From the IMG/VR virus record IMGVR_UViG_3300048606_000186, positions 1 to 64,000 of that record: DNA of 64,000 nucleotides; one strand, 5' to 3'. Below the pieces are notes generated by a model that worked only from the letters and a program-made list of their open reading frames with translations, was not told where the DNA came from and searched no databases. Source of the DNA: a virus. Lineage: Duplodnaviria; Caudoviricetes. Shown piece by piece: positions 620 to 49,545 of the stretch. The position numbers were made by a program, and so were the translations under genes. Position 1 is the first letter of the stretch. Every line of letters begins with the position of its first letter.

Positions 620-2832
620 GCGAATCATGTTTTACTGGATTGACGTTCGGTTCCGTCTGTTCCGGCATCGAGGCCGCGAGCGTCGCGTGGGAGCCGTTCG
701 GCTGGCGACCGGTCTGGTTTTCGGAGATCGAGCCGTTCCCGACGGCGCTGCTCGCCTGGCGATTCCCCGACGTTCCGAACCTCGGCGACATGACCTTGCT
801 TGCCGCGCGGGTGCGCGCCGGCGAGATCGAGGCGCCGGACGTGCTCGTCGGCGGCACGCCCTGCCAGGATTTCTCGGTCGCCGGGCTGCGGGTGGGAATC
901 GTGGGTGCCCGCGGCAATCTTACCCTTTCCTTTGTGGAGTTGGCCGATGCAATCGATGACCGTCGCGGACTTCTTGGGCTGCCCCCCTGCATCGCCGTTT
1001 GGGAGAATGTTCCCGGTGTCCGGTCGCTCGACTGCAATGCGTTCGGCTGCCTGCTCGCCGGGCTCGCCGGGGATGACGAGCCTCTTGTCCCAGGCCCGCG
1101 ACCCGAGCGGGGAAAGTCCAACGACTGGTGGACGTGGCGCGCGAAACTGGGCGACCATGTGGCGAAGTGGTCGGTCGCGGGTGCTGTCGCTGGCCCCGAA
1201 AGAGCAGTCGCGTGGCGGAGCTTCGACGCCCAATTTTTCGGTCTGGCCCAACGACGCGAGCGTGTGTTCGTTGTCGCAGGTGCTGGTGAGGGGTTCGATC
1301 CCGCCGCAATACTTCTTGAGTGGGAAGGCCTGCGCCGGGATTCTGCGCCGAGCCGAGAAGCGCGGGAAGAAGCTTCCCACCCCTTTGCTCCTTGCCTTAC
1401 AGGCAGCGGTCGCGGCGTCGAACGAACCGGCGACCCTCGAGGACAGGACCCCGACGACGGGGTCCTGTCTACAGGCGGGGCGGCAGTCGACGAAGCTGGG
1501 GACGCAGTTTCCAGGCCTGGCGACCTTTCTCGCGTAGCGGACACTCTTGAAGCCACGGCTGCGCCCAGCCGTGGCGCAGGGACTCCGCTCAGCATGCTCG
1601 TCGTCGAAGATCGGATAGCCCCGACGCTCGACGCCAGTTTCGCGCGCCTTCAGGGCTGCTCCGGTCAGGACTTGCGCCACGGCCACGGCCACGGCCACGG
1701 GCATCCGGTCACGGCGCCGCGCGGCGACCCGGATGAGGCCGTCCCACAATGGTGGGACGGCCGAGACGTCTCCCAGACATTGGATGCCGTGTTGCACAAG
1801 GGCCAGACCATGCCCGAGAAGGACCGCTTCCCCGCGGTGCTGCAACCGGTAGCCGCGAACGCGGCTACCGGACACTTCGCCGGATTCTGCGAAGTCGACG
1901 TATCGGATCCGCTGAGAGGTACGGGGGGTGATGCCGGTGACGGCAGCGAGTCGCTGATTGGTGAGGCGATCTGCGTCACCGGTTCGGTGACGCATACGCT
2001 CAAGGCCAACGGTTTCGACGGCAGCGAGGACGGGACCGGGCGCGGGCAGCCGATCGTGGCCTTCAATCCACGATCTACCGGCGTCAACGTCTACGTCGAG
2101 CTCGCCGGCACGATCGACGGCAGCGAGCCAGCACAGGCTGTGCTGGCTTTCAACGGTAAGGGTTACGCTCAGGACCATATCGAGAACCTGTCACCAACTC
2201 TGCGCGGGGGCAACACCGAGGGTCACGCTAACGCGGGTGTCCCGCCTGCGATTGCCTATGCGATTCAGGAGCGCGCCGTTTGCGAGAATCCGGATGCGGG
2301 CCCTGACGCCGACGGCGTCAGGGCCGACGATTGCGCCTACACGATGGAGGCGCGCAGCGTGCCGCAGAGTGTCGCCTTCGTCCAGAACAGCCGGAGCGAG
2401 GTGCGCCTGATCGGCGGTGACGGGCAGATCACCGGCGCGCTTGCTGCTGAGCTCCCGGCTCAGCAGCAGAATTATGTCGCCTCGGGTGCCCAGACCATGG
2501 CCGTCCGCCGCCTGATGCCCGTGGAATGTGAGCGTTTGCAAGGCTTCCCGGACGGCTGGACCCTGATCCCGTGGAAGGCGCTGAGCCGCTTCATGAAGCG
2601 CGAGGCCAGGGCCGGCACGCTGACCGACGCCGGCCTGCGCGCCTATGCCGCGACCTTGCCGCCGCCGACCGACCCCGCCGAGTGCCCGGACGGGCCGCGC
2701 TATAAGGCGATCGGCAATTCGATGGCGGTGCGCTGCATGGCGTGGATCGGCGGCAGGATCGAGCGTCATCGCCATCTGCCGAACGCCCTCGCATCCGTCG
2801 CCGCGCCAAGCATTGAGGGCTTCCTCGGATGA
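616..2832 (+). CDS. DNA cytosine-C5 methyltransferase with very long variable region
   Basis: Motif I SVCSGIE, catalytic GGTPCQDFS, motif VI WENVPG, QRRERVF, motif IX RRLMPVECERLQGFPD, motif X GNSMAV; start at 616 (ATGA overlap) is preferred over 475. Confidence 0.95.
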   Translation: MSESCFTGLTFGSVCSGIEAASVAWEPFGWRPVWFSEIEPFPTALLAWRFPDVPNLGDMTLLAARVRAGEIEAPDVLVGGTPCQDFSVAGLRVGIVGARGNLTLSFVELADAIDDRRGLLGLPPCIAVWENVPGVRSLDCNAFGCLLAGLAGDDEPLVPGPRPERGKSNDWWTWRAKLGDHVAKWSVAGAVAGPERAVAWRSFDAQFFGLAQRRERVFVVAGAGEGFDPAAILLEWEGLRRDSAPSREAREEASHPFAPCLTGSGRGVERTGDPRGQDPDDGVLSTGGAAVDEAGDAVSRPGDLSRVADTLEATAAPSRGAGTPLSMLVVEDRIAPTLDASFARLQGCSGQDLRHGHGHGHGHPVTAPRGDPDEAVPQWWDGRDVSQTLDAVLHKGQTMPEKDRFPAVLQPVAANAATGHFAGFCEVDVSDPLRGTGGDAGDGSESLIGEAICVTGSVTHTLKANGFDGSEDGTGRGQPIVAFNPRSTGVNVYVELAGTIDGSEPAQAVLAFNGKGYAQDHIENLSPTLRGGNTEGHANAGVPPAIAYAIQERAVCENPDAGPDADGVRADDCAYTMEARSVPQSVAFVQNSRSEVRLIGGDGQITGALAAELPAQQQNYVASGAQTMAVRRLMPVECERLQGFPDGWTLIPWKALSRFMKREARAGTLTDAGLRAYAATLPPPTDPAECPDGPRYKAIGNSMAVRCMAWIGGRIERHRHLPNALASVAAPSIEGFLG

Positions 2833-3620
2833 CGGTCTCGCTCGCCGATCTGCTCGGGCCCGGCATCGCCGCCGCCGACGCGCCGCCCGCAAGGCCGAAG
2901 CGCGCGCCCCGCGCCAAAGCAACGCCTGCGCCGGCCGCGCCCCCCGAGGAATGGAGCCTGGTCGCGCTCGAAGACCTGCCGGAGACCGCGGCGGGCGTCC
3001 GCGCGCACGCGATCAAGATGGCAGGATCGGGCCGCGCCTGGATCGAGGCCGGCGTGCTGCGGCTTCCGGTCAGCAAGAATTTCCTCGCCCAGATTTTCCA
3101 GATGGACCCGGCGACGGTGACCAAGCGGCTGCTGACCTGTCCGACCGCGGGCATGGCGGGCGGCGGGCGGCCGGTCTACGATTTCCGGACCGCGATCGGC
3201 TATTTCGTGCCGCCGAGGATGAGCATCGACGATTATATTGCGTCGATCGACCCGAGCGAGCTGCCGCCGCACCTCAACCGCTTCATCATCGGCGCCAAGC
3301 GCGAGGCGCTGCGCTATGCGCTCGAGGCGGGCGACGCCTGGCTGACCGCCGACATCATCGACACGCTCGGCGACCTGTGGATGACGATCAAGAACCAGAT
3401 GCCGCTCCTGGTCGAATCGATGCGCGAACTCGGGCTCGACGATATCCAGGCTGACGCGCTGCGCGCCAAGCTCGATGCGTTCCAGGCGCGGCTGCACGCC
3501 GGACTGGTCGAGATGCCGAAGAAGAAGAAGACGCTGTCGATGCTCGGCCAGGCGCCGGTCGCCGCGCCGATCGATGCGGTGGGCGGCGAAGGGGACGACG
3601 GGCCCGCGGTGACGGCGTGA
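2829..3620 (+). CDS. terS: Terminase small subunit (chi/Nazgul-type, DUF1441-like)
   Basis: HTH 'LAQIFQMDPATVTKRL...VYDFRTA' plus helical C-terminus; lies upstream of terL in a chi-like gene order. Confidence 0.7.
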   Translation: MTVSLADLLGPGIAAADAPPARPKRAPRAKATPAPAAPPEEWSLVALEDLPETAAGVRAHAIKMAGSGRAWIEAGVLRLPVSKNFLAQIFQMDPATVTKRLLTCPTAGMAGGGRPVYDFRTAIGYFVPPRMSIDDYIASIDPSELPPHLNRFIIGAKREALRYALEAGDAWLTADIIDTLGDLWMTIKNQMPLLVESMRELGLDDIQADALRAKLDAFQARLHAGLVEMPKKKKTLSMLGQAPVAAPIDAVGGEGDDGPAVTA

Positions 3621-4942
3621 CGGGCCGCATTCTGACCGGCGACGCGCTGGAGATGCTGCGGCGGTTGGCCGACGCCAGCGTCCATTGCGTGGTGACGTCG
3701 CCGCCCTATTTCGGGCTTCGGGATTATCAAACAGGGACGTGGGATGGCGGCGACCCGGAGTGTGATCACGCGCCGGCGCAGGATTGGGTCGCCGACGGCG
3801 GTGACATGCGGCGATCGCACCCTGCGATCGCCGGCAACCAGGCGAAAGCCGAGCGCAGACGCGGCGCGAGGTGTGCGTGCGGCGCGGTCAAGGTCGACCA
3901 GCAGGTCGGGCTGGAATCGTCGCCCGACGCCTATATCGTGCGCCTAGTCGAACTGTGCCGAGAGGTCCGCCGCGTGCTGCGCGACGACGGGACCTTCTGG
4001 CTGAACCTCGGCGACACCTATTGCAACGACCAGAAGGGTCCGAAAGGCGCCGACAAATCGACGCTGACGGGGGGCGGCGACTATCAGATGATCGCCGCCC
4101 CCCGCTCGCTCGGGCAGATGCGCTACCGGGAATGGGGCAACAAGCGCAAAGACCTGCTGATGATCCCCGCCCAGGTCGCCTTGGCGCTGCGCGACGACGG
4201 CTGGTATCTGCGTCAGGACATCATCTGGGCCAAGGACAATCCGATGCCCGAGAGCGTGCGCGACCGCTGCACGCGAAGCCACGAGCACCTGTTCCTGCTG
4301 ACCAAGCGCGAGCGCTATTATTTCGACGCAGAGGCGATCAAGGAGCCAGCCGTCACCGAGTCGCGCGGCAAACGAAATTCGTTTGCCCGCAAGAGCGCGA
4401 TCGGGCTCGACGAGGTCCATTACGGCAAGGGGACGATGCGCAACAAGCGCGACGTCTGGCGCGTCAACACGCGGCCGTTCGCCGAGGCCCATTTCGCCAC
4501 CTTCCCGCCGGCGCTGATCGTCGATTGCATCCGCGCCGGGACATCGGCCGCAGGCGTCTGCGCGGATTGCGGCGCGCCGTGGCAGCGGGTCATAACGCGG
4601 ACGTCGATGGTGATCGACCGCTCGGAACGGACGCACGATCTCGGCCGCACCCGGACGTCGGGTACGATGGTCGAGCCGCCGACGACGACGACGACGACGA
4701 CGACGGGATGGAAGCCGGGCTGCGGCTGCGCTGCCGGCATCGTCCCCGCCACGGTCCTGGACCCGTTCTTCGGCTCCGGCACGACCGGACTCGTCGCCGA
4801 GGTCGAGGGCCGCGACTGGATCGGGATCGATCTGAACGCCGACTATGTCGTGATCGCGCGGCGCCGCATTGCCAAGGCCCGGCTCGCGCGCTTCGCCGCT
4901 GCGGGCGTCGGGGCGCTGGCGTGGCTGGCCTGCGCCCAATGA
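3617..4942 (+). CDS. DNA amino-methyltransferase, beta class (SPPY, probably N4-cytosine)
   Basis: VVTSPPY catalytic motif at the N-terminus, HFATFPP, SAM-binding VLDPFFGSGTTG at the C-terminus. Confidence 0.92.
   Translation: MTGRILTGDALEMLRRLADASVHCVVTSPPYFGLRDYQTGTWDGGDPECDHAPAQDWVADGGDMRRSHPAIAGNQAKAERRRGARCACGAVKVDQQVGLESSPDAYIVRLVELCREVRRVLRDDGTFWLNLGDTYCNDQKGPKGADKSTLTGGGDYQMIAAPRSLGQMRYREWGNKRKDLLMIPAQVALALRDDGWYLRQDIIWAKDNPMPESVRDRCTRSHEHLFLLTKRERYYFDAEAIKEPAVTESRGKRNSFARKSAIGLDEVHYGKGTMRNKRDVWRVNTRPFAEAHFATFPPALIVDCIRAGTSAAGVCADCGAPWQRVITRTSMVIDRSERTHDLGRTRTSGTMVEPPTTTTTTTTGWKPGCGCAAGIVPATVLDPFFGSGTTGLVAEVEGRDWIGIDLNADYVVIARRRIAKARLARFAAAGVGALAWLACAQ
4682..4705 (+). repeat. (ACG)8 in-frame microsatellite encoding poly-Thr
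   Basis: Eight tandem ACG codons inside the MTase. Confidence 0.9.
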
Positions 4943-4973
4943 ATTCTTCGATGGCAACCAAGGAGACTGACAA

Positions 4974-5354
4974 ATGAAGACGCTTTACCTTTGCGGACCG
5001 ATCAACGGCTGCACCGATGAAGAATGCACCGATTGGCGGAGCTACGTTACCAAGAGTTGGGACGGCCGTTGCATTGATCCGATGGTGCGCGATTATCGTG
5101 GCCGGGAGGCCGAGGCGTTCCGAGAGATTGTCGAGTTCGACAAGATCGATGTCACCGAAGCTGACATCATCCTCGTCAACTATGACAAACCGAGCGTCGG
5201 CACCAGCATGGAAGTGCTTTATGCTTGGGAGCGGGGCAAACGCGTAATCGTCGTCCTTCGCGAGGATGCGGTGATCTCGCCATGGCTTCGCTATCATGCG
5301 CACCATCTGGCCCACAGCTTCGATGAGGCGATGAGAATCGCAAGCGCCGCGTGA
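4974..5354 (+). CDS. Nucleoside 2-deoxyribosyltransferase / Rcl-like N-glycosidase
   Basis: 'LYLCGPI', 'D..DVTEADIILVNYDKPSVGTSMEVLYAWERGKRV' is the NDT fold signature with the catalytic Glu in GTxxE. Confidence 0.8.
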   Translation: MKTLYLCGPINGCTDEECTDWRSYVTKSWDGRCIDPMVRDYRGREAEAFREIVEFDKIDVTEADIILVNYDKPSVGTSMEVLYAWERGKRVIVVLREDAVISPWLRYHAHHLAHSFDEAMRIASAA

Positions 5355-5596
5355 AGATCGAACACCGCCTTCGCGCGCATGGGCGTTGTCCCGTGGACGG
5401 AGCGCTAGACGCTTATCAAGTGATCGTGCGCTGCCACCGGGTCATCAAGGTCGAGGATATCCTGGCGGCTGTCGAATCCTTCACCACTGAACCGGTGTTG
5501 CAGGAGCAGTTCACTCGTCAGCTTGCGGCCCGACTGCGCGCGGAGGTGGAAACTATCGGGTTTCACTCGGGCGTCGAGACGCGGGTTGTCGCATGA
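5351..5596 (+). CDS. Minimal T-fold, QueF-like protein
   Basis: CPVDGALD (C13, D20), VE35 and QE52 have spacing like the QueF active-site residues; only 81 aa. Confidence 0.55.
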   Translation: MKIEHRLRAHGRCPVDGALDAYQVIVRCHRVIKVEDILAAVESFTTEPVLQEQFTRQLAARLRAEVETIGFHSGVETRVVA

Positions 5597-6318
5597 TCCA
5601 TTATCACGGCGGACCCATCACTCCAGACCCGTGCGCAATTCGCGCATGGCAGGCTGGGCACGCGTTCATCTCGTATGCCGACAGTCGTCAAATTGGCTTG
5701 GCCGCAGAGATTTGCCAGTCGTTTGCGCTGGATAACGGTGCCTACACCTTCTGGAAGACCAAGCGACCGGTAAACTGGCCCGGATACTATGCGTTCGTCA
5801 ATGAGTGGAGACGGCATCCCGGATTCGATTTCGCAGTCGTCCCGGATGTCATCGAGGGAAGCGAAGAAGAAAACGATGCGCTTGCGGACGCATGGCCATT
5901 TTCCCGGCACGAAGCTGGCGTTGTGTGGCATATCAACGAAAGCTTCGAAAGGCTGAAGCGCCTCGCTTTGGCATGGCCGCTAGTCTGCATTGGCTCCTGT
6001 GGAGAATATGATGTCGCTGTTCCGGCCCGTTATTTGCCGCGCGCTAGGGCGGCAATTCGGACCATTTGTGATCGCCGCAGTCGGCCAATATGCAAGCTGC
6101 ATGGGCTGCGAGTTCTCAACCCTGCGATATTCACCCAGTTGCCGTTAGCCAGCGGCGACAGCACCAATATCGCTCAGAACATCGGCGTCGACTCGTCCTG
6201 GAAGGGCACCTATCAGCCGCGAAGCAAGGAAACGCGCGCCGCCATTCTTCGTGAACGCATTGAATCAATCAATAGCATTGGGCACCTCCCGTCACCAGTT
6301 GAAGCTTTTCTGGCATGA
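5593..6318 (+). CDS. dpdA: DpdA-like (TGT-fold) DNA 7-deazaguanine transglycosylase
   Basis: TGT-like motifs LDNGAY, VPDVI, VWH, LHGL, SGDSTN; adjacent QueF-like gene. Confidence 0.7.
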   Translation: MIHYHGGPITPDPCAIRAWQAGHAFISYADSRQIGLAAEICQSFALDNGAYTFWKTKRPVNWPGYYAFVNEWRRHPGFDFAVVPDVIEGSEEENDALADAWPFSRHEAGVVWHINESFERLKRLALAWPLVCIGSCGEYDVAVPARYLPRARAAIRTICDRRSRPICKLHGLRVLNPAIFTQLPLASGDSTNIAQNIGVDSSWKGTYQPRSKETRAAILRERIESINSIGHLPSPVEAFLA

Positions 6319-8531
6319 GAGTCTTCCACACCCTCGAGGACCTGATCCTCGCGTCAGCCGAGGCGGTGCGGCCGACCGAGCGGATCGACGTCGCCCAGGC
6401 GGCGGAGCGCTACCATATCGTGCGGCTTCCCGGCATGCATGACGGCCCGTTCAGCCTCGACAGGACGCCCTATCTGCGCGAGCCGATGGAGGAGATGACC
6501 TCGCTCCAGTTCGAGGGGATGGTGTTCATCGGGCCGGCGAGGACCGGCAAATCCGCCATGGGAATGAATTGGGTCTGCCATAGCGTCAAGGAAGACCCGA
6601 ACGACATGATGCTGGTCCACATGGCCCAGCACACCGCGCGCGAGTGGAGCCAGCAGGATCTGGAGCGGATGTTGCGCCACAGCCCGAAGATTCGCGAGCA
6701 GCTCGTCCCCGGCCGCCAGAACGACAACGTCTACGACAAGAAGTTCCTCTCCGGCATGCGGATCGAGGTGACCTGGCCGACGCCGTCGAACCTGTCGGGT
6801 AAGACCTACCGCTACACCTTCATCTTCGATTACGACCGTGAGCCGATCGTCATCGCCGGCGAGGGCGACAAGTGGGGGCTGACCTTCAAGCGCGGCGAGA
6901 CGTTCGGCCGCTACCGAATGCACGTCGCCGAGACCTCTCCCGGCCATCCGGTCAAGGACGCCAAATGGGTGCCGCCGCCCGGCGAGCCGCACGCCGCGCC
7001 GCCCTGCGATGGGCTGCTCAGCGTCTATAACGAATCGGACCGGCGCCGCTGGTACTGGCGCTGTCCGCAGTGCCATGAGGCGTTCGAGCCGCACCGCCGC
7101 CTGCTCAACTATCCCGATTCGAAGGACCCGATGGAGTGCGCCGAGGGCGTGACGATGATCTGCCCGCACGATGGCTTCCCGATGCTGCCCGACATGCAGC
7201 ACGAGCTCAACCTCGGCGGCCGCTGGGTCAAGGAGGGGCAGGTCTGGATCCCCGACGCGCGACTGGTCGGTCCCGAGACCGGCGAAATCCTCGGCGAGGC
7301 GCGCCGGTCGAACATCGCGGGCTTTTGGATGTTCGGCCCGGCGGCCGGCTTCACCGACTGGAAGAAGCTGGTCTACCGCCTGCGCGTCGCCGAGCAGGAT
7401 TATGAGCGCAACGGCGGTGAGGACAAGCTCAAGACCTGTCTCAACACCGATTTCGGCGAGCCGCACGTTCCCAAGAATCTCGCCGCCGGCCGCCTGCCCG
7501 AGGAGTTGAAGGCGCGCGCCAGGGAGTGGAGCGAGCGCGGCACGGTGCCGCCTGGTGTCGGCTTCCTGGTCACCACGATCGATGTTCAGGCGGGCGGGCG
7601 GCCGAGCTTCGTGTGGCACACTTACGGGATCGGCACGCAGGGCGTCACGCCGGAGCAGGCCGAAGCTGGCGATTTCTCCACCGCCGCCGACATCTGGCAC
7701 GTCGACATGGGCAAGATCCGCAAGTCCGAGCGCCTCGACGGGGATGGCGAGCGCAAGTTGATCGACCCGGCAGCTTATCCGGAGGACTGGGACCTGCTGA
7801 CCGATGCGGTGCTGCTCAAGACCTACCCCCTGTCGGATGGCAGCGGGCGGCGCATGGCGGTCAAGATCACGGCCTGCGACTCGGGCGGCGCCGCGGCGGG
7901 CGGCTACGGCAAGCGGGCCGCGGCCAAGGCCGGCGAGGCGAAGATCAGCGTCACCGCCAACGCCTACGAATATTGGCGGCGACTGAAGAAGGATCCGGAG
8001 GGGCGCCAGCTCCACCTGCGCTTTCACCTGGTCAAGGGTGAGAAGAGCGACTCGGCCCCGGAAATCCACAAGAGCTTCCCCGATTCGCAGCAGAAGGACA
8101 AGTTCGCGATCGCGCGCGGCGACGTGCCGATCTGGAAGATGAACTCGGACAAGCTGAAGGATCGCCTGTCGAACAAGCTCGGCCGCATCGACCCGGGCGG
8201 TCGGATCAATTTCCCGCTGTGGCGCGACGATGAAGGCGGCTGGGTCGATATCGGCTGGCTCTACCAGCAGCTGACCGCCGAAGTGCGGACCGCGCGCGGC
8301 TGGGAGAATCCCGGCAATAGGCGCAACGAGGCGTTCGATCTGCTCTATTATTGCCTCGGCGTCCTGCTGCACCCCGATATCCGGGTCGAGCGGATCGACT
8401 GGCGGGCGCCGCCGAGCTGGGCCGATCCCGACTGGGACCGCAACTCGCTGGTGTTCCTGCCCGGCGGCGCCCCGTCGCTGATCGCCCCGCCGAAACGCAA
8501 CATCGCAGATTTGGGCAAGGAACTGGGCTGA
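6315..8531 (+). CDS. terL: Terminase large subunit (lambda gpA type)
   Basis: Walker A GPARTGKS, 'RRWYWRCPQCHEAF' Zn motif, nuclease 'TIDVQ' and 'NEAFDLLYY'. Confidence 0.96.
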   Translation: MRVFHTLEDLILASAEAVRPTERIDVAQAAERYHIVRLPGMHDGPFSLDRTPYLREPMEEMTSLQFEGMVFIGPARTGKSAMGMNWVCHSVKEDPNDMMLVHMAQHTAREWSQQDLERMLRHSPKIREQLVPGRQNDNVYDKKFLSGMRIEVTWPTPSNLSGKTYRYTFIFDYDREPIVIAGEGDKWGLTFKRGETFGRYRMHVAETSPGHPVKDAKWVPPPGEPHAAPPCDGLLSVYNESDRRRWYWRCPQCHEAFEPHRRLLNYPDSKDPMECAEGVTMICPHDGFPMLPDMQHELNLGGRWVKEGQVWIPDARLVGPETGEILGEARRSNIAGFWMFGPAAGFTDWKKLVYRLRVAEQDYERNGGEDKLKTCLNTDFGEPHVPKNLAAGRLPEELKARAREWSERGTVPPGVGFLVTTIDVQAGGRPSFVWHTYGIGTQGVTPEQAEAGDFSTAADIWHVDMGKIRKSERLDGDGERKLIDPAAYPEDWDLLTDAVLLKTYPLSDGSGRRMAVKITACDSGGAAAGGYGKRAAAKAGEAKISVTANAYEYWRRLKKDPEGRQLHLRFHLVKGEKSDSAPEIHKSFPDSQQKDKFAIARGDVPIWKMNSDKLKDRLSNKLGRIDPGGRINFPLWRDDEGGWVDIGWLYQQLTAEVRTARGWENPGNRRNEAFDLLYYCLGVLLHPDIRVERIDWRAPPSWADPDWDRNSLVFLPGGAPSLIAPPKRNIADLGKELG

Positions 8532-8533
8532 GT

Positions 8534-8574
8534 TTCAGGTTTCACTTGACACTCATGTGCGAATCGGTTTAGAA
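8534..8574 (+). promoter_or_regulatory. Sigma70-like promoter overlapped by an operator
   Basis: TTGACA (8546-51), 17 nt, TTAGAA (8569-74); operator TTCAGGT-TTC-ACTTGAC at 8534-50. Confidence 0.6.
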
Positions 8575-8579
8575 GCGAA

Positions 8580-9270
8580 TCAATCCCCGGTGCCCTGTCG
8601 GTTCGCCGACTAGCAAGGATTTGGCGAGGAACAGGCCCGGTAGGCCTCGCTGTTTCGAAGTGGTGAAGCCAGGTAAATCCAAGGCCGGTTGCAAACGATC
8701 GAGGAAGCCAGCACGGGCCCGCTTACCCCGAGGCCGTAGTTATAAAGAGTATCGGGGATAGAACGATCTGCTGCCGGGTGGCGCTGGCGACTTCGAAGTG
8801 TTTCAGAGGTGAGCTTCGGCACCGGGTAACCGGACGGGCTTACGGGAGATGACGCCGAAAACTCTCCCGGAGTAGTGCGCGCTTATCAAGAGGTGGCCGG
8901 GCGTCTCATAGCGCACATCCCGAGCAAGCGACAGGCGGGTGTCAACCACAGCCGCAAGGTCGAGAGTTGGCCCGCCTGTCGCTTGCATAATCAGTTTTTA
9001 CCCACTCACACACGCATGTGGGTGGCGACAGAGGGCAGTGAACCGGGCGCGGAAGCTGCCCTCGACCAGTACGGGGTTTTGCAGGGTCGCCGGGGACCCG
9101 GTGCCGTACGTCCCGGTAATATTTGAAGTGCTGCTGCGCCTGGGGCCGCGTGATTGGCGGCCACAGCAGGATGGCGCAGGGCATCGGGTGAACTCCACCG
9201 ATAACCCGCCTGGGAGGTTGCTGAAATCCCAGGGCTGTCGCAGTAGAATCAGTTTTTACTTGATTCTCCG
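8580..9270 (+). ncRNA. Putative large structured non-coding RNA (family unknown)
   Basis: ~700 nt without a credible ORF between terL and gpW; more than 10 helices visible by eye, including a perfect 16-bp stem (8924-39/8971-86) and UUCG and GNRA loops; own promoter. Confidence 0.55.
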
Positions 9271-41984: not shown

Positions 41985-42989
41985 TCAGCCGACCGCCGCG
42001 GCGCGCGCCCGGACGATCTCGACGAAGCCGTCGGTCAGCGCGGCCAGGTTTTCGAGGCTGCTGCTGTTCGGCAGCGTGTCCATCGGGACGTCGTCGAGCG
42101 CCCCTTCGCTGGCATGGCCACGGGGCGGCGCGTCGAAACCCGGCCGGATCTTGGCCGGCACGCCGCCGAGCTCGCAGACAAGGTCGAACTCGTTGGCAAA
42201 GCGCATGTCGTCGATCACGATGTCGCGGCCACCGCCGATGATTCGCCACGCGTCGATCTTAAGGCGCATGATCGCGATCCACAGGTCGGGCCTGACCAGT
42301 TCGCGGCCCCATTCGGTGCCGAGCGTCTGCTGGAGATAGCGCGACGTGAGACCGGTCCGGCCGAGCACCTGGTCGACGATCCATTTGTTGAGCGAGCAGA
42401 TGATGTAGCGCGGCGTCACGCCGAGCCCGTCGATCTCCTGGTTGGCCAGGTCGCCGTGGAGCATGCGATCGATCGTGCGCTCGTCGAATGCGAGGTCATT
42501 CAGCATCGCGCGGACCATGGCCTCGATCATGCGGGACACGACGCAAGGCGGCATGCGCATCGGGAGGCTGTCGGTCACGATTTCCTTGAGGTCGCCCTCC
42601 ACCATGCGCTCGATCATTTCGACCGGATAAGCGAGCGAGCGCAGCATCGCGCGGAGCATCTCCTTCAGCGTGCCGGCGAACTTCAGCGCCATGAAACCGT
42701 GGCGCTCGACCAGGCGACGGGCGACCTCGGATTTCCCCGAACCCATGGCCGGCGCACAGAGCGCGATCAGGATCGGGGGCGGAGGCGGAGGGGCGGGTTC
42801 CGCATAGGCGATGCGGCCGGCGGCAACGGGCCTGCGCTGATATAAGCCCCTGGCACCAGTCTCTCCGGATAGCTCGGTTCTCGCCAGACGATCGATCCGT
42901 GCGTCAATTTCATCGTCCGGCTGTGCGTAGTCCGTGGTTCGGGCTGCATCGCTGAAAACGACTGGGCAGATGGGCTCGTTCATGGCCAC
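41985..42989 (-). CDS. Deoxynucleoside monophosphate kinase (T4 gp1-like) with internal duplication
   Basis: P-loop GSGKS, 'KFAGTLKEM', 'QTLGTEWGR', 'IDDMRFANE', 'HASE'. Confidence 0.88.
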   Translation of the reverse strand: MAMNEPICPVVFSDAARTTDYAQPDDEIDARIDRLARTELSGETGARGLYQRRPVAAGRIAYAEPAPPPPPPILIALCAPAMGSGKSEVARRLVERHGFMALKFAGTLKEMLRAMLRSLAYPVEMIERMVEGDLKEIVTDSLPMRMPPCVVSRMIEAMVRAMLNDLAFDERTIDRMLHGDLANQEIDGLGVTPRYIICSLNKWIVDQVLGRTGLTSRYLQQTLGTEWGRELVRPDLWIAIMRLKIDAWRIIGGGRDIVIDDMRFANEFDLVCELGGVPAKIRPGFDAPPRGHASEGALDDVPMDTLPNSSSLENLAALTDGFVEIVRARAAAVG

Positions 42990-43332
42990 AGGCTCCAGAG
43001 GAGGAAGACAAGGATGGCGAGGCCGATCGTCTCCACACAGCCGGTGTTGCTGCGGTTGACGCGATCCTCGGGAGGTTCGGCGGGAGCATGGTCCGGCATG
43101 TCAAAGCCCCCACGGCGGCAGCAGCCTGGCCAGGAAGCTCAGGTTTTCAACGATCGACTGGACGATCACCGCGATGAGCGCCATAGCCACCGCCGGGCCA
43201 GCGCAGCCGGAACCGTTGGATCGATAAAGGCGTGCGTCGCTCATGCTGATTGCTTCGGCACGGTGGTCAGATGAACCGGTCGAACGATACCGCTTCGGTC
43301 GAGCGCGAACAGATGACCGGGATAGAGCTCGT

Positions 43333-43905
43333 TCATATCGCCACCGCCTCGCCGGTCAGCTCGGTGAAGCGCGCGGCGAACATCCGGGTGGCCGACTCCG
43401 GCCCCCAGCAATGGATTTCGATGTCGGCGGGTTCGCCGGCGACGTTCCAATCGTGGGGGACCGGGTTCATCACCGCCTCGCGCTCGGTCAGCAGGATGGC
43501 GCGGTCGGCCGCCGTGACGCAGTCGGGCTGCATGATCGGCAGATTGAAGCGTGTCGCCACGGCCTGCCAGTTGAGGAATTCGATCTCGCGATAGCCGTGC
43601 AGTTTGTATTTGAACGGCCGCCGCACGTCACCGACATAGGCCTCGGCCGCGTCGTGCATCAGGCCAGCGAAGGCGTGTTCGGGCGGAACGATGTGGCTGA
43701 CGTGGACGCTATGCTCCGCGACCGAATAGAAACGCCGGCACATGCCGTTGTAGCGACAGATCTTGCCAAGCGCCTGGGCGATATCCTCAATGAACACGTC
43801 TTCGGGTCGCGGGTCGAATGGGAAATAGGGCCTTCCGGTCCAACTGTGGGTCCAGTTGCCGCGCGCCTCCTGGCCGGCGATGCGGTTGTCGTAGCCGCCG
43901 CTCAT
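43333..43905 (-). CDS. HD-domain deoxynucleotide phosphohydrolase
   Basis: 'IEDIAQALGKICRYNG...YSVAEHSV...LMHDAAEAYVGD'. Confidence 0.88.
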   Translation of the reverse strand: MSGGYDNRIAGQEARGNWTHSWTGRPYFPFDPRPEDVFIEDIAQALGKICRYNGMCRRFYSVAEHSVHVSHIVPPEHAFAGLMHDAAEAYVGDVRRPFKYKLHGYREIEFLNWQAVATRFNLPIMQPDCVTAADRAILLTEREAVMNPVPHDWNVAGEPADIEIHCWGPESATRMFAARFTELTGEAVAI

Positions 43906-44090
43906 CGGACCATCACCAGAACGATGTAGCTCGCGATGGTCGATGCCGCGGCGATACAGAGGTGGTAGCGCCAGTCGATGGCCCGCAACCGTTCGGAAAG
44001 CGACGGCGGTTTCGGCGCCGACATCCTGGGGCCGAGCAGGATCATCGCGCGTTCGCGCGGTGTCGGCTGTGGCTTGATGCGGATGTTCAT
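43902..44090 (-). CDS. Small protein with C-terminal TM
   Basis: Coupled ORF with a hydrophobic tail. Confidence 0.5.
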   Translation of the reverse strand: MNIRIKPQPTPRERAMILLGPRMSAPKPPSLSERLRAIDWRYHLCIAAASTIASYIVLVMVR

Positions 44091-44413
44091 GCGGCCTCCA
44101 CGGTCAAAGCCTCGAGATGAAGCCGGACATCGTTGTGCACGCGCTCGTCCGCGAGGCAGGTGATGCCCGCGAGAATGTGGCCCCGCAGCTCGATTTCGCG
44201 TTCGGCGAGGCCGTTCAGGAAGGCGTCGGCGACCGGACGCGATGACGGCCCCTTAATCGAGAGCGTGAGCCGGTGACGTTCGCCGGAGAAGGTGACGCTC
44301 GCCCAAGGCCGACCGGTCGCTTCGACGACCTCCACCGTGGCACCGTCGGCGTTGGCTCGGCCGGCATCCAGGCGGAGGGCGGCGGCGAGGGCGGTGGCGG
44401 CGTCCGGTCTCAT
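44087..44413 (-). CDS. Conserved sphingomonad-type hypothetical protein
   Basis: 'RPWASVTFSGERH' motif recalled from sphingomonad proteins. Confidence 0.55.
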   Translation of the reverse strand: MRPDAATALAAALRLDAGRANADGATVEVVEATGRPWASVTFSGERHRLTLSIKGPSSRPVADAFLNGLAEREIELRGHILAGITCLADERVHNDVRLHLEALTVEAA

Positions 44414-44667
44414 GACGCGCTCCGATCAGGGTTCGGTTCTGGGTCATGGTCGGCGCGGCCAAACAGCCAAATCCCGAGTGACCACAGCCCAGCGAACGGG
44501 AGGTAGAGCAGGACAAACGGCCAGAAGCAGCAGCCAATGATGGCGAACTGACCGATGACTATTTGGCCGTGATCTGTCGGCTCTTTGCGGCCCAGATAAT
44601 GCACAGCGAAAAAAACGATGGCGCCGACAATCGCCCAGGCAGTCAAAGAGAGTTGCCACCAATTCAT
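44410..44667 (-). CDS. Two-TM membrane protein
   Basis: Hydrophobic segments 'AWAIVGAIVFF' and 'FAIIGCCFWPFVLLYLP'. Confidence 0.55.
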   Translation of the reverse strand: MNWWQLSLTAWAIVGAIVFFAVHYLGRKEPTDHGQIVIGQFAIIGCCFWPFVLLYLPFAGLWSLGIWLFGRADHDPEPNPDRSAS

Positions 44668-44806
44668 GTCAGTACCGGCGGCGCGAGGCTCATATCCGAC
44701 GCGACGGCGACCTCGACGACGACCGGTGGCAGCGTTTTGGCCATGGCGAGCGAGGAGATGCCGGTCCGCAGGGCGGCTTTGTGGAAGCGAAGGCTGTAAT
44801 CGCGCT

Positions 44807-45109
44807 TCATGCCCGCAAGGCCTTGTTGCGCCAGGCCGGATCGTCGGAGCGGCTCGGCCGGGGGCGATAGAGCTTGCTGGACCGGGGACGCCCGAGCGTG
44901 GCCGCAACGTCGCGATAGCCTTGCTCTTCGGCCTGCACCGGAGTCAGTGCAGGGTTGCGCAGCATGGCCTTGAGAGGGGCCACCGACAGAGCCGCATTGA
45001 TTCGCTTGTTCGAGACGGGCGTAAAACCCGGCTCCCGCGCGAGTTGGCGGACGCGACGCGCCTTCATTTCGGCGCGATGGGCCGCGCTACGTGGATGGTT
45101 TCGGTTCAT
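44807..45109 (-). CDS. Basic hypothetical protein
   Basis: RBS GGGGAG; operator at 45120-36 directly upstream. Confidence 0.55.
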   Translation of the reverse strand: MNRNHPRSAAHRAEMKARRVRQLAREPGFTPVSNKRINAALSVAPLKAMLRNPALTPVQAEEQGYRDVAATLGRPRSSKLYRPRPSRSDDPAWRNKALRA

Positions 45110-45138
45110 TATCTCCCCTTCCCACTAAAACATGAAAC

Positions 45139-45516
45139 TCAGATCGTCGGAACGACGCGCGGCACCTGCTGCACCTGGCCCTGCGAAGCCTCATGTTCCC
45201 GCGCCAGAGCGACCAGGGTCGCGGCGCCGAGGTTGAAGATCAGGCATACTTCGGCGAGCCGCCGCGCTTCGGGCGGCGTCAAATGCGCGGCGCCGGCGAA
45301 GCGGGCGAGGAATGTCTCGTCGCCGTGGTTCAGCCGCGCGCGCAAGGCGGCGGCGCAAATATCGATCGGCGTCTCGAGCAGTGTGCGCGGATCCTGATCC
45401 TGCGCGTAATCGGGCAGCGCGATACCGGTCGCGGACGGCGCTGTGTCGGGCGCCGTGGCGAACGAAGGAGCGGCCAGTGAGACCATGGCTGCAAGGATCA
45501 GGGTTCTTTTGCTCAT
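45139..45516 (-). CDS. Exported hypothetical protein
   Basis: Signal peptide MSKRTLILAAMVSLAAPSFA; promoter/operator at 45545-72. Confidence 0.6.
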   Translation of the reverse strand: MSKRTLILAAMVSLAAPSFATAPDTAPSATGIALPDYAQDQDPRTLLETPIDICAAALRARLNHGDETFLARFAGAAHLTPPEARRLAEVCLIFNLGAATLVALAREHEASQGQVQQVPRVVPTI

Positions 45517-45593
45517 TGCCGACTCCCTCGTTCGAAATTGCGTTATCCAGTAAAACATGAAATAGAGTCAAGCGAAAACGTCAGGCCGGCGCA

Positions 45594-46628
45594 TCATGCG
45601 ATCAACAACCAGGCGAGGCACCGATTGCGGGCGATCTCGACCGAGAAATCAGTCGGAGGTCTAACGGTGATGTTTTCGTTCAAACCCCAGCGCGGCGGGA
45701 AGAATGGTGTCGGCATCGGTGCGGAGAGCGGGCGGTATGTCTGCTTGATTTTGCTGCGGCCGGCCCTGCCTACGATATCGGGGTGTGAAGCGCGTGAATA
45801 TTTGCTGATCTCGCAGAACAGACCTTGGCAGTCGTTGAGTTGCAGCGGTCTGCCGAAAAGGCCCGGAAAATCGAGACCGAGTCGGTCGAATTCCGCATCC
45901 TGCCGGGACCACATTTCACGAATTACATCCTCGGCCGTGGCACCGCCTGTGTCGCTGAAACACTTTGAAATTCCATCCAGGGCGCCCGGTCCGGCGACGA
46001 CAAACTCGGATTCCCCAAACGCAAGCAGGCTGGAATAATTGAGGTCTAGCGCATATTGGAAGGCGAGGAAGCTTCCGAGGCCGGCATAAACATGGAGCAT
46101 CTCATAAACCTGGCTGAGTGAGGTCGCTCCAGCGATTCGACAGGGCAGACCATCGGAAAGCATCCGGCTCAACAACAACAAGTGATTTTCATGTTTTCGC
46201 GCCGCACCGAACGGTGGCGATGACATGATATATGCCGCCGAATAGATGGTTTCCCGCCTGGCCATCGCGCCAGAAAGAATCAACGCGGCGCGCTCAAGAG
46301 TTGCCTGCGTTGCCACAATAGGGCCGAGATCGGCTTCGAGCAGTTGCCAGGTCTCGATCTTATTGAAAATCTTGAACAGGAGCGTTCGGAAGAACAATTC
46401 ATCAGGCGCTTGAGAACGACCCTCGCCATATTGAACTTCGCGGATCAAATACTGGCTGATCCTGTCGGCAGCCCTGTAGGTATTGCAAAACCGCCAGTGC
46501 TGAATGATTGGGTCGTCCGTCCATGGCCCAATAGGATCAACGAGATGGCGGTAATATGCGGCCAAGCGCTCCGCCGCGAACCGCCAATAGCTGTCATAGA
46601 CGGCCGTTGGTTCAAGGTTCGCCATCAA
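45594..46628 (-). CDS. aGPT-Pplase1 / 5-hmdU DNA kinase helical-domain family protein (base hypermodification)
   Basis: 'RFCNTYRAADRISQYLIR', 'YSAAYI', 'FLAFQYALDLNY', 'GPGALDGI', 'DCQGLFCEISKY'. Confidence 0.82.
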   Translation of the reverse strand: MMANLEPTAVYDSYWRFAAERLAAYYRHLVDPIGPWTDDPIIQHWRFCNTYRAADRISQYLIREVQYGEGRSQAPDELFFRTLLFKIFNKIETWQLLEADLGPIVATQATLERAALILSGAMARRETIYSAAYIMSSPPFGAARKHENHLLLLSRMLSDGLPCRIAGATSLSQVYEMLHVYAGLGSFLAFQYALDLNYSSLLAFGESEFVVAGPGALDGISKCFSDTGGATAEDVIREMWSRQDAEFDRLGLDFPGLFGRPLQLNDCQGLFCEISKYSRASHPDIVGRAGRSKIKQTYRPLSAPMPTPFFPPRWGLNENITVRPPTDFSVEIARNRCLAWLLIA

Positions 46629-47245
46629 TAGGATTCCAGCAACGGGATGCAGCGCAGAACCTTGTCCCCCGGTGTGGCGTTCGGATCGCGCAGAACAGCC
46701 AGGGATTGGTCGATCAGGGCCTGCTTGCGGCCGGAGCCGCGGGGGCTCGGCACCGGAGCCCCCGAATAGTAAGCGGCGATCGCCTCGCGCAGCCAGGCCT
46801 GGTGATCTTCATCGCCGTGCCGCAAGGATTGGAATAGCGCTTCCGCTTCATCACCGTTGTTTGCCGTTACCGGATCCCTGGACAGACCTGACGACTCTTT
46901 GAAGGCCTGCTTGTCACGGATCCGGCGCTTCAGGTCGGGCGTATCGATGCGACGAAACTCATCATATGCAGCTGTACTAAGATCGACTTCGAGCACACCG
47001 CACAGAGCGGCGAGCGTCACCATGACACCGCCCACCTCGTTAGGAACAGATCCGATCGGTCGGGCGAACACATAATCCACCACGCGACGAGCCTCGCACT
47101 TCGTCATGCCCACAGCCTGGGCCAATTCGATCGCTTCTTCGGTAAAGCGAAAGCCTCTCAGCACCGGTGTCGTTAGATCGCATGCGCCCTCGAAGACCTC
47201 GCGCATCCAGCGCATCACGTACCACTGGAAGACTTGAATTCTCAT
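46625..47245 (-). CDS. MazG-like NTP pyrophosphohydrolase with C-terminal extension
   Basis: 'RFTEEAIELAQA...YVFARP.G...EVGGVMVTLAAL'. Confidence 0.7.
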   Translation of the reverse strand: MRIQVFQWYVMRWMREVFEGACDLTTPVLRGFRFTEEAIELAQAVGMTKCEARRVVDYVFARPIGSVPNEVGGVMVTLAALCGVLEVDLSTAAYDEFRRIDTPDLKRRIRDKQAFKESSGLSRDPVTANNGDEAEALFQSLRHGDEDHQAWLREAIAAYYSGAPVPSPRGSGRKQALIDQSLAVLRDPNATPGDKVLRCIPLLESY

Positions 47246-47670
47246 ACGACGTGCTCGGCACGCTTAGGCTCTTCCACGGTTTCACATTGCAGGCGATCGA
47301 GCAGCGCAACTCTCCCCGTTCCCATGTCGACTTGGTAAAGCTGCGGATGCGGCGCCCGCCAGTCCCCATAGATATGCTCAAGCGCGCGTTCGACACGGAC
47401 CTCGAGACAGCGACTGGAGAACGGGCCAGCCTTGCCGGTGCCGATCCATTCGGCGAGATCTTCGCCCCAGGCGAGGTGCGGCGGCAACATCTTGTGGTCG
47501 ATCGTCTTCAGGGCCAGCGCGAGCTCGTCGCGCAGCACCTCGGCATCGTGCGGCTCGAACCAGGCGATGACTTGCCAGGTGTGGCCGTGAAGGTTGCCCT
47601 GCGGCCGGCCCGTCTCGCCCCTGGGATAGTGGGCGGCACAAAATACGCCGCTGACTCCGGTGCGCTTCAT
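47242..47670 (-). CDS. QueD/PTPS-like T-fold protein lacking the canonical Cys
   Basis: 'FCAAH...NLHGHTWQV...IDH'; GN replaces the CxxxHGH Cys region. Confidence 0.72.
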   Translation of the reverse strand: MKRTGVSGVFCAAHYPRGETGRPQGNLHGHTWQVIAWFEPHDAEVLRDELALALKTIDHKMLPPHLAWGEDLAEWIGTGKAGPFSSRCLEVRVERALEHIYGDWRAPHPQLYQVDMGTGRVALLDRLQCETVEEPKRAEHVV

Positions 47671-48101
47671 TTCCCCGGCCTCCACGCCGACAGCGACTGG
47701 TAATACCAGTGGTGAAGGAACCCGAGCGGCGCATGGCCGCCCATCATGCGCAGCCATAGCGCGCGGCCCGATCGTCCGTTGCCGTCGGTGAACGGGTGCA
47801 GGTCTTCATAGGCATGGTGAACCTCATATGGATCCGTGCCGTCGAGGATGTTGAACAGCCGGTCGCGGATTTCCGGACATCCGGGCGGTGGAACGTGATC
47901 GCCGACGTAAACATTCAGGCCGACTCGATCACGCAGCAAGGCGTCCGGTTGGACCACCGAGACGAAGCATTGCAACGACGCGATGCTGAGATCGGCGGTC
48001 AGGAACGTGGCATGCGCCTCGATTTCGGCAGCTGTCGCGGGCCGCATGATGCCTTCGATGCGGTTGCTCTCTTCCACGAAGAGGCGGAGGGTTGAGTTCA
48101 T
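47667..48101 (-). CDS. Stand-alone Fic-domain protein
   Basis: Intact HPFTDGNGRSGR motif; 'ESNRIEG'. Confidence 0.9.
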   Translation of the reverse strand: MNSTLRLFVEESNRIEGIMRPATAAEIEAHATFLTADLSIASLQCFVSVVQPDALLRDRVGLNVYVGDHVPPPGCPEIRDRLFNILDGTDPYEVHHAYEDLHPFTDGNGRSGRALWLRMMGGHAPLGFLHHWYYQSLSAWRPGK

Positions 48102-48925
48102 CCGATCATCTCCTGAAGCAATCGCGGCGCGCCCCAGCGACCGCCACCGAGCGACGTGAAGTGGCGTTGCAGCGTCTGGCGAATCTTCGGCCGCCAGTGC
48201 GGCGAGCAGCGCCGTTCCGGCACGATCGCCTCGTAAATGTCCTGAACCGGTGCCGCGCCGCCGAGCTCTCGCAGAGCGATCGACACCGCCTCGCGCCATG
48301 TTCCCGGGCGCGACAGTGCATCGCGCAGCTCGTCGCGCATCCCGTCGACGTCGCGCTTCTCGGCGAACAGCATAAGGCCGGCGACATAGCGGCGACCCGT
48401 CTTGGTGAACTTGGCCCAGGTCAGCGGCTTCGAAAGGCCTGGAAACAGGGTGCGCGGGATCAGATTCACGTCGATTGCGAACCGCTCCATGTAGCGGGCA
48501 ACGCGGCTCGGGGTCTGGAAGGTGTAGGCCGGCAGGATCATCGCGACCAGGCCGTCTTCCGGCAGCAGAACGTGGGCACGATCGAGCAGGGCATCAAGCA
48601 GCGCCATGTCGAACGGCGGGTTGCCGAGCAGCAGTTCTATCTTCCGCCCGGTCAAGTCCACGGTGAGGAAGTCGCCTTCGATAACGTCGCGGCCACTGGT
48701 TGCGCGCGCCACCGCGGCGGCCTTGGGATCGATATCGACGCCGAACGCGGGACAGGCGGCCGGGATAGCAGCGAGAAAGGCACCGGTGCCGCAGAAGGGT
48801 TCGGCGACATGCACCCTGCCGAGCCCGGCGAGCGCGTCCGCAACCAGTTCCTCGGCGGCCCAGAAGGGCGTGAACACCTGGTCGAGCGTAAGGTCGCCGG
48901 TACGGCTATGGGCGTCGATCGTCAC
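48098..48925 (-). CDS. DNA N6-adenine methyltransferase (gamma order) with C-terminal wHTH
   Basis: 'QVFTP', EPFCGTG, GNPPF; tail 'WREAVSIALRELGG....DIY...KIRQTLQ'. Confidence 0.88.
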   Translation of the reverse strand: MTIDAHSRTGDLTLDQVFTPFWAAEELVADALAGLGRVHVAEPFCGTGAFLAAIPAACPAFGVDIDPKAAAVARATSGRDVIEGDFLTVDLTGRKIELLLGNPPFDMALLDALLDRAHVLLPEDGLVAMILPAYTFQTPSRVARYMERFAIDVNLIPRTLFPGLSKPLTWAKFTKTGRRYVAGLMLFAEKRDVDGMRDELRDALSRPGTWREAVSIALRELGGAAPVQDIYEAIVPERRCSPHWRPKIRQTLQRHFTSLGGGRWGAPRLLQEMIG

Positions 48926-49545
48926 GCGGCACCCGGCGGCCGGTCGTGGGTGGCGTCGTAGTCGGGGTCGATCCAGCCATATTCCTCGGCCGCCGCCTGG
49001 AGCGCCGCCGGCACGGCGAGGCCCGCGGCCTGCATCAGGTGCCACAGATCGAACGAGCAGATCACGACGCAGCCGAGCGTCTCAGCGGTGTAGGCGACGG
49101 TTTCGGCGGTGCTGGCGGGAATCGGGTGGCGGGCGACGGCGCGACTGGGGACGCCGGCGACGATCAGCCGCGCATCCTCTTCGCACATGAGACGGGCGAA
49201 CTGACGCCGGGCGCCGGTTACCCGATCCTCTGCGTCAACGGCCCATTCGGCATCGACCGCCCAGGCCTTCAGGGATCCGTCGTCGAGCTTGAAGGCGTGG
49301 TAGGTTTCGACGGTGCTGTCGGCGGCCGCCCGCGCCCCGTCCTGAACTGGGCTGGCGAGGGCGCGGATGGAGGCTGCAATCTCTCGGCGGCAAATACTTG
49401 TTGGTGCCTCGCCGCGCATATATGCTTCCGACGCAGACGCGCAGGCCACCCATGCTTCGGCAATCTGGGCGCACCGCTCGATTAGCGCCCTCTCCCCCAA
49501 GCCCGCTGTCGGCTGGGCGGGGGTGGACTTGTCCTGCTCGGTCAT
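48922..49545 (-). CDS. Hypothetical protein
   Basis: Coupled by 4-bp overlaps on both sides. Confidence 0.55.
   Translation of the reverse strand: MTEQDKSTPAQPTAGLGERALIERCAQIAEAWVACASASEAYMRGEAPTSICRREIAASIRALASPVQDGARAAADSTVETYHAFKLDDGSLKAWAVDAEWAVDAEDRVTGARRQFARLMCEEDARLIVAGVPSRAVARHPIPASTAETVAYTAETLGCVVICSFDLWHLMQAAGLAVPAALQAAAEEYGWIDPDYDATHDRPPGAA

Follow-up and report, generated by a model that had tools for sequence, protein, structure and literature searches.

A DpdA-type DNA transglycosylase is coupled to a predicted small QueF-Like-related T-fold protein and a DNPH1/Rcl-related protein between the terminase genes of a provirus

Background

The 7-deazaguanine modifications of DNA shield phages from restriction enzymes. 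Here, we examined a three-gene cassette that may install such a base, located at positions 4974-6318 of the IMG/VR virus record IMGVR_UViG_3300048606_000186 (Duplodnaviria; Caudoviricetes). The analyzed stretch, hereafter the window, comprises positions 1 to 64,000 of this 78.8-kb provirus record, which is rated complete. Among sequencing data, the same stretch was listed for two DNA runs and no RNA run, both from a single soil metagenome sample that is its probable source. The cassette encodes a DpdA-type protein of the tRNA-guanine transglycosylase (TGT) superfamily (gene 3), preceded by two small genes: a putative T-fold protein closest to the archaeosine synthase QueF-Like (QueF-L; gene 2) and a predicted member of the nucleoside 2'-deoxyribosyltransferase (NDT) superfamily (gene 1). 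We consider it fairly probable that this cassette swaps guanines of the phage DNA for a 7-deazaguanine, using a precursor whose synthesis the phage does not encode.

Several components of this kind have been described previously, including DpdA systems, phage QueF and QueF-L proteins, and the phage transporter YhhQ (PMC6884629, PMC10516641, PMC7472734). In the bacterial Dpd system (DpdA/DpdB/DpdC), a TGT-like DpdA inserts 7-cyano-7-deazaguanine (preQ0) into DNA, and DpdC converts the resulting deoxynucleoside, dPreQ0, to dADG (2'-deoxy-7-amido-7-deazaguanosine) (PMC10164549). Among phages, DpdA is accompanied by an amidotransferase in several cases, namely Gat-QueC in 9g, ArcS in nt-1, and the QueF-L-like Gp33 in Sphingomonas phage MMDA13 (PMC6884629, PMC7472734). 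These sets follow the same logic as the window, pairing DpdA with one enzyme that tailors the preQ0 nitrile. However, FolE, QueD, QueE, and QueC are encoded by these phages as well, and the enzyme used for tailoring is of full size, unlike the small protein of the window.

Another set of phages, called the "third group" by Hutinet et al., carries DpdA without genes for the synthesis of preQ0 or archaeosine (G+), and these phages may use host preQ0 or precursor uptake (PMC6884629). Such "DpdA-only" systems, exemplified by Salmonella phage 7-11 and the singleton DpdA of gamma-proteobacterial prophages, presumably draw on a host or imported precursor (PMC6884629). In those phages DpdA stands alone, whereas in the window it is coupled to two small accessory genes. 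Where the large "DpdA-only" group obtains the base, and how the dADG observed in certain genomes arises, are still open to question (PMC6884629, PMC8306585), and Hutinet et al. noted that 2'-deoxyribosyltransferases might have escaped detection (PMC6884629). The QueF-L protein of Pyrobaculum calidifontis, lastly, acts through a thioimide at Cys21 and a general acid/base Asp, uses free NH4+, and is independent of any cofactor (PMC5485725).

The cassette and its DpdA-type core

The three genes of the cassette are arranged as follows.

4974-5354, + strand: gene 1, predicted NDT superfamily member, nearest to DNPH1/Rcl, 126 residues
5351-5596, + strand: gene 2, predicted small QueF-L-related T-fold protein (mini-QueF-L), 81 residues, GTG start overlapping the gene 1 stop
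5593-6318, + strand: gene 3, DpdA-type DNA guanine transglycosylase, 241 residues, ATGA overlap at both ends

A preliminary description, made from the letters of the window alone, had proposed that these genes are translationally coupled through 4-bp overlaps. The open reading frames (ORFs) bear this out, with four-base junctions of GTGA between genes 1 and 2, ATGA between genes 2 and 3, and ATGA between gene 3 and the gene for the large terminase subunit (terL). An AAGGAG sequence lies 8 nucleotides 5' of the ATG of gene 1.

We then determined the identity of gene 3. It matched phrog_887, annotated as "queuine tRNA-ribosyltransferase" (E 7.8e-69), and was 54-61% identical to the singleton DpdA proteins of temperate phages, among them Salmonella phages BTP1 and SPN3UB, Shigella phage SfI, Stx phages, and many Vibrio phages. 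No match was found in Pfam (including the TGT family PF01702) or NCBIfam, and searches of PDB sequences with two DpdA profiles returned nothing relevant. An AlphaFold2 model built with 41 relatives reached a predicted local distance difference test (pLDDT) of 93. When this model was compared with the PDB by Foldseek, generic TIM barrels came first, tryptophan synthase alpha among them, and TGTs appeared only from rank 20. This ambiguity was settled by a full VIA-align search of 48,161 chains, in which the top four matches all belonged to the TGT superfamily (Cap10, Z 15.8; ArcTGT, Z 15.6; bacterial DpdA 7ui4, Z 15.0; bacterial TGT, Z 14.4), against Z 13.7 for the best unrelated TIM barrels.

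The TGT-fold motifs first read in gene 3 (LDNGAY, PDVI, and DSTN) were all present, and their aspartates, D47 (DNGA), D85 (PDV), and D189 (DST), were found to be invariant in the 41 relatives, as were H113 and H170. The same three Asp motifs recur in a second DpdA subfamily. In the Salmonella enzyme, D95, D130, and D256 serve as general acid/base, in base recognition, and as the nucleophile, respectively (PMC10164549). Matched by motif order, D47, D85, and D189 fit these three roles. We conclude that gene 3 is a DpdA-type protein of the TGT superfamily. It was noted that the solved bacterial DpdA chain has 413 residues with a large Ins8 insertion, whereas the DpdA of the window has 241 residues. 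The bacterial system also includes the DpdB ATPase and DpdC, neither of which is present in the window, where the putative tailoring protein is instead a T-fold.

A small T-fold protein related to QueF-Like

The automatic gene call for gene 2 (P0001) had 58 residues and started at Val24, so that it lacked Cys13 and Asp20. The 81-residue form with Cys13, begun by the GTG at 5351, is supported by homologues of 80-86 residues that align from residue 1. A profile of six close homologues found QueF-L as its best PDB match (E 0.0024), and a 128-sequence profile matched it at E 6e-07 over residues 6-82, with GTP cyclohydrolase I next. Through an exhaustive profile search, 643 cluster representatives were collected, of which 393 had E values of 1e-10 or below. 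Almost all of the 643 have 79-95 residues. The nearest neighbors in the ESM Atlas and BFVD were unnamed viral proteins of 80-88 residues, and a scan of genome contigs found no relative.

The AlphaFold2 model of gene 2 (pLDDT 97.6) showed a beta-beta-alpha-alpha-beta-beta order of elements. Foldseek against the PDB placed the QueF-L structures 5jyx/5k0p first (TMq 0.82-0.85, E 4e-07), followed by GTP cyclohydrolase I. This agrees with the 81-residue T-fold that had been proposed for the second gene, and from profile and model together the protein is a T-fold closest to QueF-L, more so than to QueF itself. Among 128 relatives, C13, E35, E52, and H72 were invariant and D20 was kept in 125, while P14, Y22, and Q51 were near-invariant. 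The first three acidic or thiol positions and D20 are the ones originally singled out as an active site. In the alignment, Cys13 corresponds to Cys21 of QueF-L and Asp20 to the Asp seven residues further on, whose role we take to be that of the general acid/base Asp of PMC5485725. The Gln/His-Glu position of gene 2 aligns with the His-Glu pair of QueF-L, and a subclade from cultured phages retains the His before the anchoring Glu.

Gene 2 resembles the P. calidifontis enzyme (PMC5485725) in its T-fold, in the Cys-Pro pair with an Asp seven residues later, in the Glu that starts helix 2, and in having no motif for binding reduced nicotinamide adenine dinucleotide phosphate (NADPH). The two proteins differ in length (109 residues in QueF-L and 81 in gene 2), share approximately 22% identity, and have different partners: QueF-L works with ArcTGT on tRNA, whereas gene 2 is paired with a phage DNA transglycosylase.

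Because gene 2 shares its Cys/Asp/Glu core with QueF, we also considered a true nitrile reductase that makes 7-aminomethyl-7-deazaguanine (preQ1), leading to DNA with the corresponding deoxynucleoside, dPreQ1, as in Streptococcus phage Dp-1. Predicted phage QueF-L proteins did give dPreQ1 in Dp-1 and HVTV-1 (PMC6884629). However, the QueF-defining NADPH motif, E(S/L)K(S/A)hK(L/Y)(Y/F/W) (PMC10516641), is missing in gene 2, which has E35-D-I-L-A-A-V at that position. Pfam QueF (PF14489) gave no match to gene 2 at E 0.1 and none in a six-frame search of the record, and 81 residues are too short for the extra segments of the 165-residue unimodular QueF. A reductase is, in our estimation, very improbable.

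A DNPH1/Rcl-related protein

Gene 1 had been described as NDT-like, and it passed two NDT-like Pfam models, each barely over the cut-off (PF15891 at 30.5 bits with a cut-off of 30; PF05014 at 29.0 bits with a cut-off of 28.8). In precomputed tables, closer homologues carry both PF15891 and PF05014. A 23-sequence profile searched against the PDB matched Rcl/DNPH1 best (E 3.3e-4, residues 2-105), followed by the cytidine monophosphate hydrolases BlsM and MilB (E 0.04-0.07), with classical NDT last in order and only partial (E 0.08). The superfamily assignment was therefore upheld, with Rcl/DNPH1 as its nearest branch.

It was noted that Tyr5, Asp56, Glu80, Ser74, and Ser102 are invariant in the 23 homologues, and the positions of Rcl aligned to them lie in YFCGS, E-x-D, GYE, PS, and VLS. 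We take the Tyr, Asp, and Glu of Rcl to be catalytic and the two Ser to bind the 5'-phosphate. The alignment to DNPH1/Rcl (4fyh, 9da1) is near full-length and keeps all five of these residues; the relation is nevertheless distant at a profile E of 3e-4, and the setting of gene 1 is viral and beside DpdA. As judged from these comparisons, gene 1 would be a member of the NDT superfamily nearer to the Rcl/DNPH1 N-glycosidases of deoxynucleoside monophosphates (dNMPs) than to true deoxyribosyltransferases. It may have transferase (base-exchange) instead of hydrolase activity.

Gene neighborhoods of the three families

We sought to assess how consistently the small genes accompany DpdA, a survey that the preliminary description had called for. 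Gene 2 relatives were located on viral and metagenome contigs at 45 loci, 42 of them distinct. DpdA lay directly beside the gene 2 relative in 34 of the 42. Two types of DpdA were seen there, that of the window and phrog_15826, which are related at 93% by hhalign. Five of the eight loci without an adjoining DpdA were contigs of 2.6 kb or less, so that the gene may have been cut off there. The neighbors of approximately 370 residues found beside gene 2 relatives at two loci (L019 and L024) were considered as candidates and rejected, being neither DpdA nor related to each other.

The YhhQ/Vut_1 transporter of preQ0 and queuosine precursors adjoined the gene 2 relative in 15 of the 42 loci. Two metagenomic representatives were apparent fusions: P0086 joins YhhQ (residues 2-159) to a mini-QueF-L (159-241), and P0052 joins a phrog_15826-type DpdA (1-212) to a mini-QueF-L (204-299).

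The family was also traced in named phages. Searching 50,697 phage records by tblastn with gene 2 of the window and one relative (L011) gave no match, and detected none of the 9g, nt-1, or MMDA13 enzymes. The same search with a third relative (L121) matched only unannotated genes of Pseudomonas phage Epa33 (NC_073676), Microcystis phage Mae-JY30 (PP438422), and Rhizobium phage RHph_X2_30 (MW980061). In all three genomes, the gene 2 relative lies directly beside a DpdA that is itself unannotated (hypothetical) and was recognized by a local profile at E 4e-81 to 5e-94. In RHph_X2_30, a DUF165/YhhQ gene was found upstream of the pair.

Gene 1 relatives were surveyed at 80 viral loci, which collapsed at 95% identity to 68 clusters. 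DpdA was adjacent in 49 of these (72%), gene 2 was also present in 14, and YhhQ in 12. More than 10 gene orders and three DpdA subfamilies were represented, the third being phrog_1279, which was encountered beside five gene 1 homologues (L061, L065, L066, L077, and L129). Since phrog_1279 proteins were missed by the two DpdA profiles, counts of loci with no DpdA nearby are upper bounds. One Logan contig (L050) holds the window's genome slot in another order, terS-x-miniQueF-L-NDT-DpdA-terL.

Gene 1 homologues were likewise encountered in cultured viruses. In Aminobacter phage Erebus, the homologue (5001-5387 of locus L158) lies between QueD and FolE in a preQ0 operon and overlaps both, and in Edwardsiella phage vB_EpM_ZHS (3995-4405 of locus L160) it follows DpdA by three genes. 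HRTV-29, of the genus Dpdavirus, carries both genes (gp33 and gp51, L159/L161) approximately 9 kb apart. The functional tie among the three genes, previously a guess, is now backed by the neighborhood surveys and the apparent fusions.

Precursor supply and proposed route

The preliminary description had seen no folE, queE, or queC. This holds for the whole 78.8-kb provirus record, where no QueC, FolE, radical-SAM protein (QueE), QueF, or YhhQ was found, and the single weak 6-pyruvoyltetrahydropterin synthase (PTPS)-like ORF lies 41 kb away. The preQ0 genes were also missing within 4-5 kb at most related loci. In this respect the provirus resembles the phages that Hutinet et al. placed in their "third group" (PMC6884629), and its preQ0 would presumably come from the host.

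DpdA would be the core enzyme of the route. By way of a covalent Asp intermediate, it would excise guanine from double-stranded DNA and fill the position with a free 7-deazaguanine base. YhhQ (where encoded), gene 2, and gene 1 would all handle the free base, with YhhQ importing it. In gene 2, Cys13, aided by Asp20, is predicted to attack the preQ0 nitrile and form a thioimide, while Glu52 would hold the aminopyrimidine edge. Without an NADPH site, gene 2 should not be able to reduce the nitrile. Its most likely reaction would be to add ammonia without the help of NADPH, which would yield the archaeosine base and, in DNA, 2'-deoxyarchaeosine (dG+); this is favored because it is the only reaction known for the nearest relative and needs no cofactor. 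Addition of water, leading to dADG, would be the second choice. Gene 2 probably takes the free base as its substrate or works while in contact with DpdA, rather than acting unaided on DNA. Gene 1 would most likely free the 7-deazaguanine base from (deoxy)nucleoside monophosphates for use or re-use by DpdA, in salvage or clean-up.

Several observations weigh against this route. QueF-L turns over only tRNA-bound preQ0 and not the free base (PMC5485725), while the gene 2 family is acidic (median isoelectric point 5.5, with 9.5% of members above 8) and, as far as composition can tell, gives no sign of nucleic-acid binding. A free-base or DNA-bound substrate would consequently have no clean precedent. 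In addition to the failure of the Pfam QueF model to match, 127 of 128 close relatives have Gln, before the anchoring Glu, where the QueF/QueF-L His-Glu pair has His, and QueF-L offers no equivalent of the invariant His72, so the reaction of gene 2 may differ from that of QueF-L. The 80 viral DpdA proteins closest to that of the window (57-72% identity) were alone in 78 of their 80 loci, as was the DpdA of BTP1 and of a Vibrio phage. The triad is thus not obligatory, and the accessory role of the two small genes is optional.

The same biochemistry makes a non-catalytic role of gene 2 a serious rival, because the QueF-L thioimide formed with free preQ0 is inert to ammonia. Here, gene 2 would bind preQ0 covalently without turnover, trapping it as a Cys13 thioimide, shielding it from host QueF, and delivering it to DpdA as a carrier or sponge. 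The thioimides of QueF and QueF-L with free preQ0 are stable, and the inertness of the free-base adduct was reported for QueF-L itself (PMC5485725). The apparent fusions to YhhQ and DpdA would put the gene 2 protein between uptake and insertion, its very small and acidic nature is compatible with such a role, and the nearest DpdA relatives manage without it. However, His72, Glu35, and Asp20 are conserved beyond the apparent needs of binding, and a covalent adduct requires release. We know of no covalent preQ0 carrier in the queuosine field, and the T-fold relatives with a thioimide Cys are, to our knowledge, all enzymes. A carrier therefore appears unlikely, although it deserves to be kept beside the enzymatic route.

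It is doubtful, but conceivable, that the two small genes carry out steps new to 7-deazaguanine biology. By one reading, gene 2, with its Gln-Glu pair and His72, may make a base outside the eight known derivatives, or free-base G+ or ADG while docked to DpdA. By another, gene 1 may be a deoxyribose-5-phosphate transferase that exchanges guanine for preQ0 on deoxyguanosine monophosphate. If such an exchange occurs, it would constitute a pre-replicative phage route beside DpdA.

Genomic setting and a second modification module

The genes surrounding the cassette were identified as follows.

475-2832, + strand: C5-methyltransferase, upstream of terS, in an overlapping gene run
2829-3620, + strand: terS (small terminase subunit), phrog_141, E 4.6e-23, 4-bp overlap with the next gene
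3617-4942, + strand: N6/N4 DNA methyltransferase between terS and the cassette, PF01555 E 6.4e-44, phrog_67 E 1.3e-63
6315-8531, + strand: terL (large terminase subunit), gpA type, PF05876 E 7.6e-56, PF20454 E 1e-42, start overlapping the DpdA stop

These matches agree with the earlier observation that the cassette and a methyltransferase together separate terS from terL. The drop in guanine plus cytosine content reported at the same time was likewise reproduced, with values of 0.55-0.62 over 4950-6300 compared to 0.65-0.72 in both flanks. Promoter-like and terminator-like sites were looked for on the + strand over 700-9221 and none was found, which fits a single long operon. The three-gene cassette was probably acquired horizontally and lies in the late operon.

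Both methyltransferases contain a perfect in-frame tandem repeat. In the C5-methyltransferase, (GCCACG)x4.2 at 1676-1700 encodes a His-Gly run, and in the N6/N4-methyltransferase, (CGA)x8.7 at 4680-4705 encodes a run of eight Thr. These repeats could be slippage-prone linkers.

A second DNA-modification module was noted on the - strand of the same provirus, at 41985-49045.

41985-42989, - strand: dNMP kinase, phrog_139
45594-46628, - strand: 5-hydroxymethyl-2'-deoxyuridine (5-hmdU) DNA kinase, PF18723, E 1.2e-96
47242-47757, - strand: weak PTPS/QueD-like ORF, 24.4 bits
within 41985-49045, - strand: 206-residue protein of unknown function, phrog_14118/8593
within 41985-49045, - strand: Fic-like ORF and methyltransferase-like ORF

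The module suggests thymidine hypermodification alongside the deazaguanine cassette. We weighed the PTPS-like ORF as a possible QueD or DpdL and set it aside on its low score, its lack of a clean CxxxHGH motif, and its position beside the 5-hmdU kinase.

This module bears on the role of gene 1. Its nearest solved relatives, the DNPH1 proteins, are now named 5-hydroxymethyl-dUMP N-hydrolases; together with the 5-hmdU DNA kinase of the phage, their activity on 5-hydroxymethyl-dUMP offers gene 1 an alternative role and so counts against the proposed salvage of 7-deazaguanine. Gene 1 could then be a general nucleotide-pool enzyme, or could handle 5-hydroxymethyl-dUMP for thymidine hypermodification, and would be near DpdA merely because DNA modification genes share a neighborhood. 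The dNMP kinase-like gene of the provirus is in line with this. In the same direction, of 26 homologues more distant from gene 1, taken from bacterial genomes and metagenome-assembled genomes, 23 had no DpdA nearby, indicating that the family is not exclusive to the 7-deazaguanine pathway. However, the adjacency to DpdA at 72% of the non-redundant viral loci extends over three subfamilies and varied gene orders, and the Erebus homologue overlaps QueD and FolE within a preQ0 operon. In the window, translational coupling also ties gene 1 to gene 2, and 40 kb separate it from the 5-hmdU kinase. An unrelated role for gene 1 is thus rather unlikely, and handling of the 7-deazaguanine base is retained as its preferred assignment.

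Implications for phage DNA modification

The preliminary description did not recognize the triad as a characterized system. Consistent with this, neither an 80-residue QueF-L-like family coupled to DpdA nor a DNPH1-like family coupled to DpdA was found to be described in the literature searched, in PHROGs (where the annotation is "unknown function"), or in GenBank phage annotations. Two compact accessory families, together with the importer YhhQ, accompany DpdA across three of its subfamilies, in soil, marine, and cultured phages. Both accessory families are small enough for quick testing, and an 81-residue, cofactor-free nitrile-modifying enzyme, if true, would be of interest to enzymologists. 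These families may explain how phages that lack a preQ0 pathway acquire, tailor, or recycle the base that DpdA inserts into their DNA.

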